In this document: positions 1 through 40,191 of the stretch, one piece after another
Numbering within the stretch: the stretch's first letter is position 1
How the letters are laid out: the number at the start of each line of letters is the position of its first letter
The notes under the pieces: generated by a model
Told to the model about the DNA's origin: nothing
Database searches by the model: none
The model's input: the letters and a program-made list of their open reading frames with translations, nothing else
Virus genome (UHGV): UHGV-1553673
Strand: one strand, 5' to 3'
Origin: a virus
DNA length: 40,191 nt
Translations under genes and position numbers: made by a program

Positions 1-441
1 ACGTAAACTTTTTCCGGTTGTTGTCGATAGCTCTATATCCCTCAACCGGAAAATAATAATAGTAAAATGCTTAGCCCTGCTAATAATCGCCTAATCCAAA
101 CGCCTCATTCATGTTCTGGTACAGTCGCTCAAATGTACTTCAGATGCGCGGTTCGCTGATTTCCAGGACATTGTCGTCATTCAGTGACCTGTCCCGTGTA
201 TCACGGTCCTGCGAATTCATCAAGGAATGCATTGCGGAGTGAAGTATCGAGTCACGCCATATTTCGCTATCAGGATTCTGTGTGATGGTTACATCGCCCG
301 GCCCAGGGCTGTTTAGTCATCAGCGCTTTCTGACAGTGCTGAGATTTCAACCTGTTGCAGTAAAAATGAGTAGATATAAGGCAAGTGTGCTGCCAAACCC
401 ATCTTTTACGGGGTGAAGGTAGATTTCGTTTGAAGGGTATC

Positions 442-456
442 TGGTGTCCCCTGCAG
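442..456. repeat. att core copy (integrase-distal); 15 nt identical to the tRNA-Arg 3' terminus
   Basis: Exact match of 442-456 to 40141-40155; on the minus strand it reads CTGCAGGGGACACCA, the tRNA 3' end. Confidence 0.7.
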
Positions 457-529
457 ACATCTACTTGAGGCGGCAGGGGGTTGATTAGAATGGTGTTTTT
501 TAGATGTGAGAAATATTTTACCCGCTATT

Positions 530-730
530 TTACCCATTGGCGCGGCTTAAGAGCTTATTTTTGAATTCACAATGGTCACGATATAACCATCTTGCTCGCC
601 CGTGGATAACTTTGGCTTTAGGCAGGTCTCCGGACTTAATCCGGTCATAGATGAAGGTTTTACCGAAGCCAGTATCGGCCATGATGAATTTCAAATCAAC
701 CAGTGAATCAGGCTGTAATTCGTGTTGCAT
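530..730 (-). CDS. AlpA-family DNA-binding protein, likely excisionase/regulator
   Basis: 66 aa with MerR/AlpA-like HTH pattern (TGFGKTFIYDRIKSGDLPKAKVIHGRARW); sits next to the att site. Confidence 0.7.
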   Translation of the reverse strand: MQHELQPDSLVDLKFIMADTGFGKTFIYDRIKSGDLPKAKVIHGRARWLYRDHCEFKNKLLSRANG

Positions 731-749
731 GGGTGCTATCTCCGAATAG

Positions 750-765
750 GGAATCGAACCTGCAA
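750..765. repeat. Second tRNA-derived fragment (16 nt identical to the tRNA-Arg T-arm region)
   Basis: ggaatcgaacctgcaa at 750-765 equals 40155-40170; lies about 19 nt upstream of the alpA start. Confidence 0.6.
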
Positions 766-772
766 ATCAGGC

Positions 773-797
773 AATAAAAAACCGCATTGATGCGGCG
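773..797 (-). terminator. Putative Rho-independent terminator (minus strand)
   Basis: Hairpin ccgcattgatgcgg (782-795) followed on the minus strand by a T-run (A-run 773-781 on plus). Confidence 0.45.
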
Positions 798-853
798 ATG
801 GTAGGTCTGGATATCATTGAGCAATGAACAGGCCTCATCGAGTGTGAGGCGGG

Positions 854-1198: not shown

Positions 1199-1210
1199 TT
1201 CTTGTCTCCA

Positions 1211-1235
1211 ATAAAAAACCGCCATCAGGCGGCTT
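1211..1235 (-). terminator. Putative Rho-independent terminator (minus strand)
   Basis: Hairpin ccgccatcaggcgg (1219-1232) with a T-run on the minus strand. Confidence 0.45.
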
Positions 1236-9647: not shown

Positions 9648-10295
9648 TCAGCCAAACGTCTCTTCAGGCCACTGCGCCTTAACTACCTTGCCTATGATGC
9701 GGCAGCTATGGTCGCAATCCAGGGTTCTATATGCCGGGTTTAAAGGTACCAGGTAACTAACCCCTGCATCCTTCTCATACTTCTTGAACGTTGCCTCTGA
9801 ATCACCATTTGCAGAAGCCACGCAGAAATCCCCAGACTCTACCGGCTCAGCCGGATCAACGAGTATCAGCATGCCTTCCGGAAAACTTGGACGAACCCCC
9901 TGAGGCGCCGTCATTGAATGCCCCTTCACCTCAAGCCAGAAAGCTTTTTCGCTGGCTTTTGTGGTCGTTGGGACCCATGCCTTTGCATCGCTGGCTGTGT
10001 AGCTTCCCACCTCCGAAAATGGCCCGGCCTGCACTGAAGAAAATAACGGGTATTCATATTGGCGAAATACGGCGTCTGAATCCTCGCCAAACATTATTTT
10101 TGCCGGAGATACGCCGAGTGCCGCCCCAAGAACCAGCGCGTCATCCGCGCTAACCTTTCTTGTTCCTAACTCGTAGTTCCCCAGGCGTGAAGGCGCAGCC
10201 CAGCCGCAAAGCTTGGCCAATTGAGCCTGGCTAAGTCCTTTAGCTTCTCTAAGGGACTTTATCCTTTCCCCGATAATTTCATGCATCGTTTTCAT
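9648..10295 (-). CDS. cI: CI/C2-type prophage repressor (HTH + S24 LexA-like peptidase domain)
   Basis: N-terminal XRE HTH ([11 protein letters not shown]); C-terminal GHSM...KK autocleavage motifs; divergent from cro. Confidence 0.9.
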
Positions 10296-26013: not shown

Positions 26014-26257
<244 letters not shown>

Positions 26258-36837: not shown

Positions 36838-38625
36838 TTATTTCAAAGATTGAAGTAAGTCTGTTTTTTTGTCTAAGACTTCTCCAATGTAACTTGCTCC
36901 ATATTTCGTTAGATGGTTTGCATCATATGATAAAAATTTGCCATTCTCATCAAAAACTCTAACCATTCCATTGTTGTCTTTTATAAGGTCAAACAAATCT
37001 ATGTAGTCATCGCCAAAAATCATTTTCGCCTTATTGTTAAACTCTATATATCTTGATAGCGGGTATGTTTTTGCTAAAACTCTGTCATTAAGAGACAGGT
37101 TAACAGCAAAGTTATTGTTATACCCGAAGTTTTTTGTGCCAATCAAGTACATTTTTGCAGTTGTTTTTGATTTTATGTAATCGTAACAGTGTTTTAACTT
37201 TTCAACGTTATTATTATAGTCGCCTGCACCCCAATTCTCCGAATATAAAATAATGTCTGAGTCATTCAAGTAGTAATCTAATTTATTTTTATTATCTATT
37301 GACCAATCACATCCACCCTCAAAATATACAATATTAAGATCATTTGTTTTAATCTTTGTAGATATTGCATTAATTAAATCTCTCGCATATGAGTTACCCA
37401 TGATTAATATTTTCTTTCCATTGTCTGAGAACTCAATATTCTTTAATTTCTTCGGGCTATCCACATACTCCTGTGGATTTCCTCCATATGCAAGATCAGG
37501 CCTGATATTTTGCAATCCATATGTTTTGTGCATCAAAATTCCTGATGCTGATAACACCAACGAAAATGCTAATGTATATGATAAGATTTTTTTTGTAGAT
37601 GTTTTTCTCTTGTTTCTGAATGGTTTTTCTACAAAAACATAAGACATCCACGATATAATAAAAATTAAAGGAATGGATGCGATAAAATATGTTGTTGACG
37701 GTTCAAATTTTGAGTTTAATCTTATAAATGCAAAAACAGGTTGATGCCAAAGGTATAGAGAATAACTTATCATGCCACATAACACAATTGGTTTTATTGA
37801 CATGAGCTTTCCAATTCCTTTAGATGCATTTGAATGCATTAAAAACAAACATGCACCAAGAACTGGAAATAATGTTTCAAATCCAGGGTGTGATTTTTTA
37901 CCATTCACAATGAAGTAACTTGATATTATCAATAAAAAACCAAGGTATGCTAAGATGTTACTTTTTCTTTTTATTTTATAGTGCGCAATAGCGGCAACCC
38001 CACCAAGAGCAATCTCCCACGCCCTTGAAGGGAGCATAAGAAATGAAAGCTCCATATTATGCACTGTTGTAATTGTTGCATATAAAAAACTGGCAATTGA
38101 TATTACCAGTAAAAACATAAAACTATTCTTTATTAGTTTATTATGATTTATTGAGTAAATTATATATATTATTACAGGGGCTACAAGATAATACTGTTCT
38201 TCTACAGCAAGACTCCATGTGTGATACAATGGTTTAAATTCAGATGCTGTAGACCAATATCCTGACGTTAAGTACAATAATATATTGTTTGCTGAAAAAA
38301 TTGTTGCAACAACTGATTGACCTAGATTCTTTAGGTCATATGGAACCATCATAAATAATGATATAATGAATGTTACTGATGTCATTAGAATTAATGCAGG
38401 CGCAATTCTACGAACCCTTCTCTCATAAAACCCAGAGAATGTAAATGTTCTATTGCTGCATTCTTTCAGCAAAATGCTGGTAATTAAAAAACCACTAATA
38501 ACAAAAAAAACATCTACTCCAAGAAAGCCGCCAGGAATCCATTGAACACCTGCATGAAAAAAGATAACAGGTAAAACAGCTAATGTTCTCAACCCATCAA
38601 TTTCGGGTCTGTATTTCAGTTCCAT
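36838..38625 (-). CDS. O-antigen acyltransferase, OafA/Oac-type (acyltransferase-3 membrane domain + SGNH domain); lysogenic conversion gene
   Basis: 595 aa; multi-TM N-terminal half (MELKYRPEIDGLRTLAVLPVIFFHAG...); C-terminal GNSYARD SGNH-like motif; strongly AT-rich. Confidence 0.8.
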   Translation of the reverse strand: MELKYRPEIDGLRTLAVLPVIFFHAGVQWIPGGFLGVDVFFVISGFLITSILLKECSNRTFTFSGFYERRVRRIAPALILMTSVTFIISLFMMVPYDLKNLGQSVVATIFSANNILLYLTSGYWSTASEFKPLYHTWSLAVEEQYYLVAPVIIYIIYSINHNKLIKNSFMFLLVISIASFLYATITTVHNMELSFLMLPSRAWEIALGGVAAIAHYKIKRKSNILAYLGFLLIISSYFIVNGKKSHPGFETLFPVLGACLFLMHSNASKGIGKLMSIKPIVLCGMISYSLYLWHQPVFAFIRLNSKFEPSTTYFIASIPLIFIISWMSYVFVEKPFRNKRKTSTKKILSYTLAFSLVLSASGILMHKTYGLQNIRPDLAYGGNPQEYVDSPKKLKNIEFSDNGKKILIMGNSYARDLINAISTKIKTNDLNIVYFEGGCDWSIDNKNKLDYYLNDSDIILYSENWGAGDYNNNVEKLKHCYDYIKSKTTAKMYLIGTKNFGYNNNFAVNLSLNDRVLAKTYPLSRYIEFNNKAKMIFGDDYIDLFDLIKDNNGMVRVFDENGKFLSYDANHLTKYGASYIGEVLDKKTDLLQSLK

Positions 38626-38797: not shown

Positions 38798-39979
38798 TCA
38801 TTGATGTGGCCTAAAAGTTGCGCTATTTTTCTCTCCATCAAGCCAATCTGCCCACCACTGCATCATTTCTCTGCGCTTATCTAGATACTGAGCATGGTTG
38901 TAAATCCCGCGCACAGATCCGCCGTTGGCATGTGCAAGTTGCACTTCAATAGCATCAGCAGGCCATTCGTGCTCGTTCATAATCGTGCTGAATTCATGCC
39001 TGAATCCGTGACCGCTTTCCAGACCCTCATAGCCGATTCGTTTGATCACAAGTAATACCGCGTTCTCGCAGATTGGCTTCTTCTTATCGTTACGCCCGGC
39101 AAAAACAAACTCTGATACTGGTTTGGTGATTGAGCTTAGCGTAGTGAGAAGTTCAACCACCTGGTCTGACATAGGAACCACATGAATTTTGCGTCCCTTC
39201 ATCACACTGGCGTCGATAGTGATAATCCTGTTTTCAAAATCGACGTTCTTCCATTGCATGGAACGAAGCTCTTTCGTTCTTAGGGCTGTGTAGCGTAAAA
39301 CTTTGGTCGCAATGAGCGATACGATGCTTCCTGAAAATGTTGCCAGTGCTTTGTTGAATGCCGGGATCTGGTCTGCAGGAAGAAACGGGAAGTTCTTCTT
39401 GCGGTATCCTTTCATGGCGTCAGCAAGGTCAGGTGCCGGGTTATATTTAGCCCTACCAGTGACAATAGCGTAACGGAAAACCTCGCCGCATCTTCTGCGG
39501 GCTTTATTTGCTCGCTCCATTGCACCGCGATCTTCAAATCTGCGGATTACTTCCAGTAGTTGCATCGGCTCAATATCCTGAATTTCAAGACCGCCGATGA
39601 TGGGTAAAATGTCGTCATCAAACATTTTTGCAAGTTCATTTGCATAGCCTACTGACCAGACTTGCTTCTTGTGCTCGTACCATTCCTTGTAAATGGCGCT
39701 AAAGGAATTGTTGTTAGATGAAGCCTTTTTCGCCTTTACCGGATCGATGCCAACCGAGATGTCTTTCCTCGCGGTCCATGCTTTATCCCTTGCTTCCTGC
39801 AAAGTCATAAGCGGATATTTTCCGACAGTCAGGATTTTCTCCTTACCGTCAATCTTGTAGCGAAGCTGCCATACCTTTTTCCCTGATACAGGGACATAAA
39901 GGTACAGGCCATTACCATCGAGTAGGCGGTATGGTTTTTCTTTCGGCTTTGCTGCTTCAATCTGCTTAACGGTGAGCAT
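38798..39979 (-). CDS. int: Tyrosine integrase, P4/IntS-type
   Basis: N-terminal arm-binding domain (LTVKQIEAAKPKEKPYRLLDGNGLYLYV...); C-terminal catalytic R..H..R..Y region; adjacent to the tRNA; the ORF extends to 40015 with a non-ATG start. Confidence 0.9.
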   Translation of the reverse strand: MLTVKQIEAAKPKEKPYRLLDGNGLYLYVPVSGKKVWQLRYKIDGKEKILTVGKYPLMTLQEARDKAWTARKDISVGIDPVKAKKASSNNNSFSAIYKEWYEHKKQVWSVGYANELAKMFDDDILPIIGGLEIQDIEPMQLLEVIRRFEDRGAMERANKARRRCGEVFRYAIVTGRAKYNPAPDLADAMKGYRKKNFPFLPADQIPAFNKALATFSGSIVSLIATKVLRYTALRTKELRSMQWKNVDFENRIITIDASVMKGRKIHVVPMSDQVVELLTTLSSITKPVSEFVFAGRNDKKKPICENAVLLVIKRIGYEGLESGHGFRHEFSTIMNEHEWPADAIEVQLAHANGGSVRGIYNHAQYLDKRREMMQWWADWLDGEKNSATFRPHQ

Positions 39980-40140
39980 GGGTAAAAATCCGGTGGGTAA
40001 AATTATTTTATCCACTTTTTACCCGTCATGGAGTGCGGCTGTCAACGATCTGACGCGAACCATGACGAACTGTGAATCTACGGAAGGCTTGATATTCAGG
40101 GGATTTTGCGGACTGGTACGGATGGAGGCGAACTGATAAA

Positions 40141-40155
40141 TGGTGTCCCCTGCAG
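40141..40155. repeat. att core copy inside the tRNA 3' end (integrase-proximal)
   Basis: Exact 15-nt repeat of 442-456. Confidence 0.7.
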
Positions 40156-40191
40156 GAATCGAACCTGCAATTAGCCCTTAGGAGGGGCTCG
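40141..40191 (-). tRNA. argW: tRNA-Arg (anticodon CCU), 3' portion; truncated by the window edge
   Basis: Minus strand reads ...AGCCC-CTCCTAA-GGGCT (anticodon stem-loop with CCT), T-arm GCAGG-TTCGATT-CCTGC, acceptor and ACCA. Confidence 0.85.

Follow-up and report, generated by a model that had tools for sequence, protein, structure and literature searches.

The DNA considered here, the UHGV virus genome UHGV-1553673 (40,191 nucleotides (nt); "the window" below means this whole stretch), is a prophage of about 39.7 kb integrated where argW, a tRNA gene, has its 3′ end, with a recombination module of the KplE1/HK620/Sf6 type. The subject of this analysis is a short T-arm-like element in the leader of its excisionase gene, torI. 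In the argW phage family the genes for excisionase and integrase stand on either side of attP (PMC2951348, PMC8787464), so that in a prophage the excisionase gene adjoins attR; because the circular phage has attP between torI and intS, torI and two arm-type sites of the integrase IntS stand between the core and the remaining phage DNA. An initial annotation of the window, made from its letters alone, had noticed that two adjoining pieces of the argW 3′ end recur near the left end, on either side of a small gene, and had left it uncertain whether the prophage begins at position 442 or at 750. The features of the locus, including open reading frames (ORFs), are as follows.

1–441, no strand assigned: host chromosome flank on the dsdC side of argW; in prophage-free E. 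coli, 242–441 runs straight into the argW 3′ end at 100% identity
442–456, minus strand: attR core, CTGCAGGGGACACCA on the minus strand, the displaced argW 3′ end ("pawZ"), from the repeat, the published cores, K-12 and the empty site
457–535, minus strand: P arm of attR, with the C half-site GTAGATGTC (457–465) and two IntS arm-type sites GGGTAAAA (516–523 and 528–535)
530–730, minus strand: torI, excisionase (recombination directionality factor), an ORF of 66 amino acids with its ATG at 730–728
740–743, minus strand: torI Shine-Dalgarno sequence GGAG, by motif position and by its presence in all 31 aligned leaders (see below)
749–765, minus strand: T-arm-like element of the leader; 750–765 holds the 16 nt shared exactly with argW (TTGCAGGTTCGATTCC), and 749–762 the retained core CAGGTTCGATTCCC
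781–796, minus strand: intrinsic terminator before the torI leader, bounding the conserved torI-attP-intS module on its left in the E. coli lineage
809–850, minus strand: truncated 5′ end of a P22-type xis (…SLTLDEAC…), without start codon, between an eag-like gene and the torI terminator
38798–39980, minus strand: intS, tyrosine integrase of the P4 family (from the ORF), transcribed away from argW
39980–40140, minus strand: P′ arm (attL), with five predicted TorI pentamers, a −35 element and four predicted IntS arm-type sites
40141–40191, minus strand: the 3′ 51 nt of argW (tRNA-Arg CCU), comprising the attL core (40141–40155) and the T-arm segment (40155–40170) that is copied at 750–765

The left end and the recombination module

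Both repeats are exact: TGGTGTCCCCTGCAG at 442–456 equals 40141–40155, and GGAATCGAACCTGCAA at 750–765 equals 40155–40170. As the initial annotation had it, both pieces are related to the argW 3′ end, and no other match of at least 11 nt to the 51-nt tRNA fragment was found in the whole window, on either strand. With up to two mismatches allowed, the 15-nt and the 16-nt patterns each occurred twice in the window and no more, and dinucleotide-preserving shuffles gave means of 0.02 and 0.04 matches for the two patterns. On this uniqueness and these shuffle counts a chance match of the tRNA-like pieces was rejected, including the chance sharing of 750–765 that had been named as a condition of refutation. 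The pieces lie 293 bp apart (457–749; about 290 bp had been given), with the ORF at 530–730 between them, and the 16-mer has the minus-strand terminator (796–781) on its 5′ side and, on the other, 5 nt, then GGAG (743–740) and then the ATG at 730, which is the order previously described. The 51-nt fragment itself equals the 3′ part of E. coli argW; Rfam scores 40144–40191 (minus strand) as a 5′-truncated tRNA, ARAGORN misses the gene because the tRNA is cut by the end of the window, and the argW locus is annotated as tRNA-Arg in RefSeq genomes.

The true left end of the prophage is 442–456, the attR copy of the 15-nt core at which IntS exchanges strands. This can be seen by reconstructing the unoccupied site: 242–456 was fused to 40156–40191, giving a 251-nt sequence that mimics an empty argW locus, and this was searched for in E. 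coli genomes. It was found uninterrupted, at 100% identity and under a tRNA-Arg annotation in the E. coli genomes listed, and at least 80% of it was present in one place in 2621 of 5426 genomes. The genomes of HK620, Sf6, IME10, Kapi1 and other phages align with the window from 442 rightward, with nothing to the left of 442. The HK620 and Sf6 records place an annotated attP core at the equivalent of 442–456, with int on one side and hkaC/gene 18 on the other; in K-12, the 15-nt copy is annotated as the pseudogene pawZ, and the CPS-53 feature stops one base before it. The published core of KplE1 is CTGCAGGGGACACCAT (PMC2951348), and for Kapi1, an argW-integrating phage whose prophage has int at one end and xis at the other, the att site is AATGGTGTCCCCTGCAG (PMC8787464). 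Thus, the empty site, the phage matches and the K-12 annotation place the boundary at 442–456 rather than leaving it between 442 and 750, and the comparison with an empty argW locus and related prophages that the initial annotation had proposed gave an answer on both counts. It follows that torI and the 16-mer are phage DNA: the piece at 750–765 belongs to the torI leader and is no att junction.

The repeat is 15 nt here, as against 16–17 nt reported for K-12 and Kapi1, because the bases flanking the core differ (C at 441, A at 40140). The base following CCA in the displaced copy is G here and T in K-12, which accounts for 15 identical nt in the one case and 16 in the other. The difference between 441 and 40140 is natural variation in the host base after the CCA end. 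A 43-codon ORF (406–537, minus strand), corresponding to hkaB of HK620 and gene 17 of Sf6, crosses the att core into host DNA; since hkaB and gene 17 span the attP core in the phage form, integration alters the 3′ end of this ORF, which is probably not a real gene.

The small gene between the pieces had been called alpA-like. A small gene it is, and its identity can be given more exactly as the TorI excisionase, since the protein is 100% identical to K-12 TorI, HkaC of HK620, gp18 of Sf6 and many prophage copies; torI is annotated in thousands of E. coli genomes in RefSeq. The arm-type site at 528–535 overlaps its stop codon. At the other end of the prophage, IntS reaches 99.5% identity with integrases from CUS-3 and further P22-like phages of E. 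coli. The predicted TorI pentamers of attL lie at 40129–33, 40109–13, 40066–70, 40056–60 and 40046–50 and read GTTCG, GTCCG, GTTCG, GTTCG and GATCG; the −35 (TTGACA) lies at 40040–45, and predicted arm-type sites lie at 40017–24, 40006–13, 39995–40002 and 39980–87, the last overlapping the intS ATG by one base. In site positions this layout agrees with the published description of the KplE1 module, which has five TorI sites in two blocks, with the pentamers GTTCG, GTCCG and GATCG, and in attL arm sites for IntS that contain TAAA and overlap PintS (PMC2951348). The window thus has the duplicated core, the P4-family integrase at attL, TorI at attR and the site layout of an argW IntS-TorI module.

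Among known systems, the KplE1 prophage (CPS-53) of K-12, with the order argW-intS…torI-attR(pawZ)-dsdC, shares with the window the integration site, the 15–16-nt core, an identical TorI, the arm-type sites, the five TorI pentamers, the attL −35 and the 16-mer 20 nt from the torI ATG, whereas it is a 10-kb remnant as against about 39.7 kb here and has a different terminator upstream of the leader. In the P22-like phages HK620, Sf6, CUS-3, Kapi1 and IME10, the core-torI-terminator module is 96–97% identical to the window in DNA, and the genes upstream of the leader are mosaic. In the window, unlike the HK620/Sf6-type phages, the usual terminator is separated from the torI leader by one more gene, eag-like, and a second terminator.

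In the P′ arms of relatives, the repeats at TorI-site positions fall into two classes, G(T/A)(T/C)CG on the one hand and (A/G)TTACC or GTAAC on the other. Both are equally spaced from the integrase −35 (loci L087, L192, L195 and L199 compared with window 40046–40133), a pattern which suggests two DNA specificities among TorI-type excisionases.

The element in the torI leader

What the initial annotation did not contain is that a short element kept by many divergent relatives includes the 16-mer. The sequence TTGCAGGTTCGATTCC stands at the same distance from the torI start (20 nt upstream) in HK620, Sf6 and K-12. By comparison of leaders, many phages and prophages of Enterobacterales keep an element of 11–14 nt, (C)AGGTTCGATTCC(C), before their TorI-type excisionase genes, with differing flanks. 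Genera with the element just 5′ of the ribosome-binding site of a TorI-type gene, at protein identities of 39–100%, are Escherichia, Salmonella, Enterobacter, Citrobacter, Erwinia, Pantoea, Serratia and Edwardsiella.

The extent of this retention was assessed in TorI relatives gathered by protein similarity alone, with their leaders disregarded and one genome per species, i.e., 31 loci. In 13 of the 31 (Escherichia, Serratia fonticola, Citrobacter, Pantoea, Edwardsiella, Enterobacter, Phytobacter and two metagenome bins), GTTCGATT(C/T)CC occurs 3–13 nt upstream of GGAG, at TorI identities of 38–100%; the chance expectation for the motif upstream of GGAG is about 1e-4 per locus. Particular phages illustrate the range of forms. 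In Erwinia phage Midgardsormr38 (88% TorI identity), GGAG follows 3 nt after the tandem CAGGTTCGATTCCC-gt-CAGGTTCGATTCCC; the form in Salmonella g341c and Emek (TorI about 50%) is AAGTTCGATTCCC, and that in Erwinia phiEt88 (TorI 39%) is AGGTTCGATTCCC. Within the same annotated-phage set, the leaders of Klebsiella Chronis and Erwinia vB_EhrS_49 are without the element. The tandem duplicate of Midgardsormr38 lies at 2803–2834 of its locus (L003), with a 16-nt period, before the excisionase gene.

In IMG/VR, 80 loci of the g341c type have the motif in most cases. A pattern scan of the same database for the motif followed by GGAG and ATG outside tRNA-like genes gave, as recognisable genes behind the pattern, TorI-type xis genes only, apart from one exception, a tRNA 3′ end abutting an integrase gene. 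When 31 distinct leaders, selected for presence of the motif, were aligned, GTTCGATTCC and GGAG were nearly fixed (GGAG in 31 of 31, with its register shifted by one column in two), and the 5′ flank, the loop of 3–7 nt and the spacer varied. The motif is found with both classes of excisionase site (GTTCG and (A/G)TTACC) and with both classes of integrase arm site (GGGTAAAA and GGGCATA). Every motif locus with a readable core has an argW-type core, i.e., TGCAGGG plus the acceptor 3′ strand, in host-specific variants, and in Pantoea L119/L122 and their relatives, which have a non-argW core, the motif is absent. The distant IntS relatives YeP4, VW-6S, Kp4865-2 and Acinetobacter 5W have no xis-attP-int layout.

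In Yersinia alsatica (L110, 10163–10188; also L111 and L112), the 3′ end of the xis ORF contains TGGAAATCGAACC, which is the GGTTCGATTTCC variant in reverse complement, twice in tandem, and integrase arm-type sites come just after; the leader itself is without the motif there. These copies may be a coding coincidence followed by a 13-nt duplication, since the first copy encodes the conserved residues WKSNL.

The core that the lineages share is the T loop and part of the T stem of tRNA-Arg(CCU), and beyond it different lineages keep different parts of the tRNA. The E. coli lineage keeps TTGC on the 5′ side (TTGCAGGTTCGATTCC), Serratia fonticola (CAGGTTCGATTCCTG) and Pantoea (GGTTCGATTCCTG) keep CCTG on the 3′ side, and Edwardsiella and P. 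stewartii have ACAGGTTCGATTCC[C]TGT, in which the full ACAGG…CC[C]TGT is a T arm of the Proteus type with one extra C. United, the lineages cover 18–19 contiguous tRNA positions, which is best explained by one longer T-arm copy followed by lineage-specific decay. The element would thus be descended from a copy of the tRNA-Arg(CCU) T arm, and it may be the vestige of an ancestral attP with a longer tRNA segment or with a core of the T-loop type. The perfect match over 16 nt in E. coli is partly luck, because three of the bases lie beyond the shared CAGGTTCGATTCC.

No larger tRNA remnant accompanies the element: neither ARAGORN nor Rfam found a cloverleaf or a contiguous tRNA 3′ half at 380–900. 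The whole leader was considered as a degenerate tRNA 3′ end (GGAG from GGGG, ATG from CCAT-G), and this was rejected, as the score was no better than for 91 other leaders; likewise, the similarity of the rest of the leader to the acceptor end is no higher than for 91 other gene leaders. The 16-mer is without the overlap TGCAGGG, of which region no second copy was found between the ends. An upstream ORF through the motif, including the AGG codon read by argW, was rejected as well, because its frame differs among lineages and the E. coli version would span the terminator.

Williams (2002, Nucleic Acids Res 30:866) reportedly described att sites in tRNA genes whose symmetric core is the T arm, the T-loop sublocation. 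With such cores the leader element shares a layout of inverted repeats around 7 nt (CAGG-TTCGATT-CCTG in Serratia fonticola, ACAGG…CCTGT in Edwardsiella). Unlike them, it stands beside a working core whose overlap, TGCAGGG, would lie at the junction of T stem and acceptor, as judged from the covariation of the half-sites C and C′, and the copy in the E. coli lineage is without the 3′ arm.

The element also marks an edge, that on the left of the module which is exchanged: in g341c, the stretch homologous to a truncated P22-type xis stops just 5′ of the element, and in the E. coli lineage three different terminators abut one and the same leader (80 related loci). An intact short ORF of g341c, MESHSLTLDEACAFLKISLPS… (L086, 2403–2513), matches residues 1–21 of P22 Xis at 90% and diverges at the T-arm-like motif. 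By this comparison, the xis fragment at 809–850 of the window looks like the scar of a P22-type xis-int-attP module that was replaced by torI-attP-intS. Two similar junctions of a terminator with TTTTTTATTG lie at 772–796 and 1209–1233 (minus strand). The latter runs directly into the GGAG-N8-ATG of the eag-like gene (854–1196), in the manner of a short motif-less torI leader; in HK620 a terminator of the 1209–1233 type stands directly before the torI leader, and therefore the extra gene and terminator were inserted in the window.

No description of the leader element was found in the literature covered; two possibly relevant papers, Panis 2007 (J Biol Chem) and Menouni 2013 (PNAS), lie outside that coverage. 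The element is a modest, apparently undescribed detail of a known system and not a new system.

What the element may do

The amount of excisionase decides excision in phages of the KplE1/HK620/Sf6 type. The published control point of the module is repression of PintS by TorI and IntS (PMC2951348). It is proposed here that the element may persist because it acts in cis, in an accessory way, to limit or time the production of excisionase, and that the core-binding part of IntS would recognise it and so restrain the production of TorI; such an accessory element read by IntS is put forward tentatively, as the leading candidate among the roles considered but one that stands against the odds. IntS is the most likely reader because the element reproduces the B half-site of attB, GGTTCGATTCC. 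In sequence the element fits an IntS core-type half-site, GGTTCGATTCC being the B arm. Most of the relatives examined also have a version of its hexamer TTCGAT at the C half-site, next to the core: the C half-site is TT(C/A)G(A/G)T in most, with variants of the TGTGAT type in Enterobacter-type loci, and it covaries with C′ around the overlap TGCAGGG. In its fuller form, the proposal makes the element a working part of the module that the integrase recognises, whether as a B arm copied from attB or as the vestige of a T-loop-type core, and that holds down the excisionase. Integrase bound there, possibly bridging to the arm-type sites at the torI stop codon 215–230 bp away, would hold the excisionase down until strong early transcription overrode the hold. 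This fuller form is doubtful.

A number of points weigh against the proposal. That IntS binds the leader is a guess from resemblance. The attR used for in vitro excision was a 135-bp fragment ending at the torI 3′ end (primer CTCTTAAGCCGCGCCAATGG; PMC3509656), so that 750–765 lies outside it, and the element is unnecessary for strand exchange itself. About half of the argW-targeting relatives are without the element, and in some of the motif-less leaders about 25 nt seem to have been cleanly deleted (…ATTGCCTG|GAGAT…; a natural short motif-less leader reads …TTTTTATTGCCTGGAGAT…), from which it follows that the element is dispensable. As the 31 aligned leaders were chosen for the motif, the conservation of their columns is no independent evidence; and as identical leaders occur in different xis clades, recombination swaps leaders among these clades and inflates the apparent depth of conservation. 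All motif-bearing modules found target an argW-type tRNA, so that they offer no contrast in target tRNA. An isolated core-type half-site is normally a weak site for an integrase, and the element keeps the weaker host-type GATTCC, not the phage-type GATGTC. Finally, a fixed place 3–7 nt upstream of the ribosome-binding site suits a role at the level of RNA at least equally well.

In such an RNA-level role, the element (GGUUCGAUUCCC) would pair with the ribosome-binding site and spacer (GGAGAU..AACC) and keep translation of the excisionase low on read-through transcripts, the tRNA fragment having perhaps been recruited since its UUCC happens to complement GGAG. The fold GGUU..AUUCC(C)-loop-GGAG(A)U..AACC is predicted in many lineages, with a loop of 3–7 nt that is free in sequence; the GATTTCC variant would form a perfect 6-bp stem (−11 kcal/mol, z about −2.7), the conserved third C, where the tRNA has T, would pair with the first G of GGAG, and 78% of the cells are paired, versus 30–58% with slid partners. 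However, there is no covariation above that of shuffles, the RNAalifold consensus reaches only −1.2 kcal/mol with 3 pairs, the mean z is −0.4 (0.02 for the leader in the window), and the ribosome-binding site is paired about equally in shuffled leaders (0.76 vs 0.83). The hairpin leaves the C and G of TTCGA unpaired, though these are among the best-kept positions, the element of Serratia fonticola, Edwardsiella and P. stewartii folds on itself instead, and no Rfam family matches the leader; control by such a hairpin is therefore unlikely. Equally unlikely is that the element is a functionless relic, left over from a longer tRNA-identical segment or an old T-loop-type core and carried along at the edge of the exchanged module. 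The end of the g341c xis homology and the three terminators do put it at the left edge of what is conserved, many relatives do without it, identical leaders across xis clades point to horizontal spread, and it is absent from the attR substrate for in vitro excision. Yet GTTCGATTCC is nearly unchanged in seven or more leader lineages whose 5′ flank, loop and spacer differ, the TorI proteins behind the element diverge by up to 60%, over which neutral survival of an 11-mer would be unexpected, and Midgardsormr38 has duplicated it in tandem.

The remaining explanations fare worse. TorI could bind its own leader via GGTTCG and autoregulate: the published TorI pentamers GTTCG, GATCG and GTCCG (PMC2951348) resemble the GGTTCG of the element, the leader sequence CAGGTTCGA is close to site I4 (TGGTTCGC), and Phytobacter has CAGTTCGA. 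However, phiEt88, L192, L195 and L199 have (A/G)TTACC or GTAAC as the repeats of their P′ arm and nevertheless GTTCGATTCCC in the leader; the element is thus independent of the excisionase-site class, which makes an operator unlikely as a general answer. Conservation moreover reaches over ATTCC(C), past a TorI site, and there is no local promoter to repress, so that autoregulation must be regarded as very improbable. Still less probable is a cII-activated pI promoter, in which the 16-mer would space a TTGC..TTGC activator site from a weak −10. The geometry of the leader resembles that of the lambda cII-dependent promoters. In the HK620 record (AF335538), 1664–1702 is annotated "promoter, phage integration" with a cII site at 1689–1701, and Sf6 has a similar pI feature; but comparison gives no support to this putative label of the leader, as the repeats are spaced TTGC-N5-TTGC and not N6, within the E. 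coli lineage the first TTGC varies (ATTACC is common), and the second is missing from all other lineages, where the T-loop part is kept. A consensus scan finds no sigma-70-like promoter, and a spacer would be unexpected as the conserved part. Of the three origins offered by the initial annotation for the separated pieces, a remnant of an earlier island and two successive argW integrations in this host are almost certainly wrong, although the small gene does have a tRNA-derived piece on either side and belongs to a family common in islands. In free HK620 and Sf6 genomes the 16-mer has the same place and torI the same arrangement; the pieces are complementary parts of a tRNA and not nested repeats; there are only two copies of the core, at the two ends of the window, and hence no second copy to mark another integration; between the pieces there is no integrase or island gene, only torI and integrase arm sites; and the empty site joins at 442–456. 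For this host both were thus refuted, and any such event may be an ancient one in the evolution of attP. The third, an unusual organisation of attP, came closest: attP does lie between xis and int, while 750–765 itself proves to be no att junction.

An IntS-read accessory element can be compared with phage lambda, in which pI inside xis and sib retroregulation across attP control the synthesis of Int and Xis. The likeness is that a short cis element near attP could bias the ratio of Int to Xis, and that attP splits elements which are contiguous only in the phage form. Unlike lambda, the sequence, the position and the gene order are other ones, and neither a hairpin of the RNase III type nor a promoter was found at the leader. 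The best explanation as a whole, comprising the boundary, the identity of the module, the retained element, its tRNA origin and the mechanism, is given a probability of roughly 0.6.

Other features of the prophage and wider meaning

Three further features of the prophage lie outside the recombination module. ARAGORN calls an 83-nt tRNA-Ala(CGC) at 10015–10097 (minus strand), which is below the threshold of the Rfam tRNA model and is probably a false positive or a degenerate tRNA-like sequence. In the late region, 26159–26218 is a run of CAGAGC hexamers, for which a repeat finder gives 24-nt copies at 12-nt spacing. Directly downstream of intS, an ORF of 595 codons (36838–38625, minus strand) with a hydrophobic-looking product is a likely candidate for a serotype-conversion gene, because Sf6 and g341c have O-antigen acetyltransferase or gtr genes in that place.

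For the annotation of argW prophages, the consequence is that they should be delimited at the 15-nt core, with torI included, and that the T-arm-like 16-mer should not be taken for a second att site. The T-arm copy before torI in many genera offers a candidate for torI control that could be tested cheaply, and it may also trace how tRNA-targeting attP sites evolve. If the proposed role of the element is true, the occupancy of a site by Int would be tied to the synthesis of Xis in phages whose xis and int are split by attP, and the element would record a shift in the position of the crossover within the tRNA during the evolution of a P4-family integrase.

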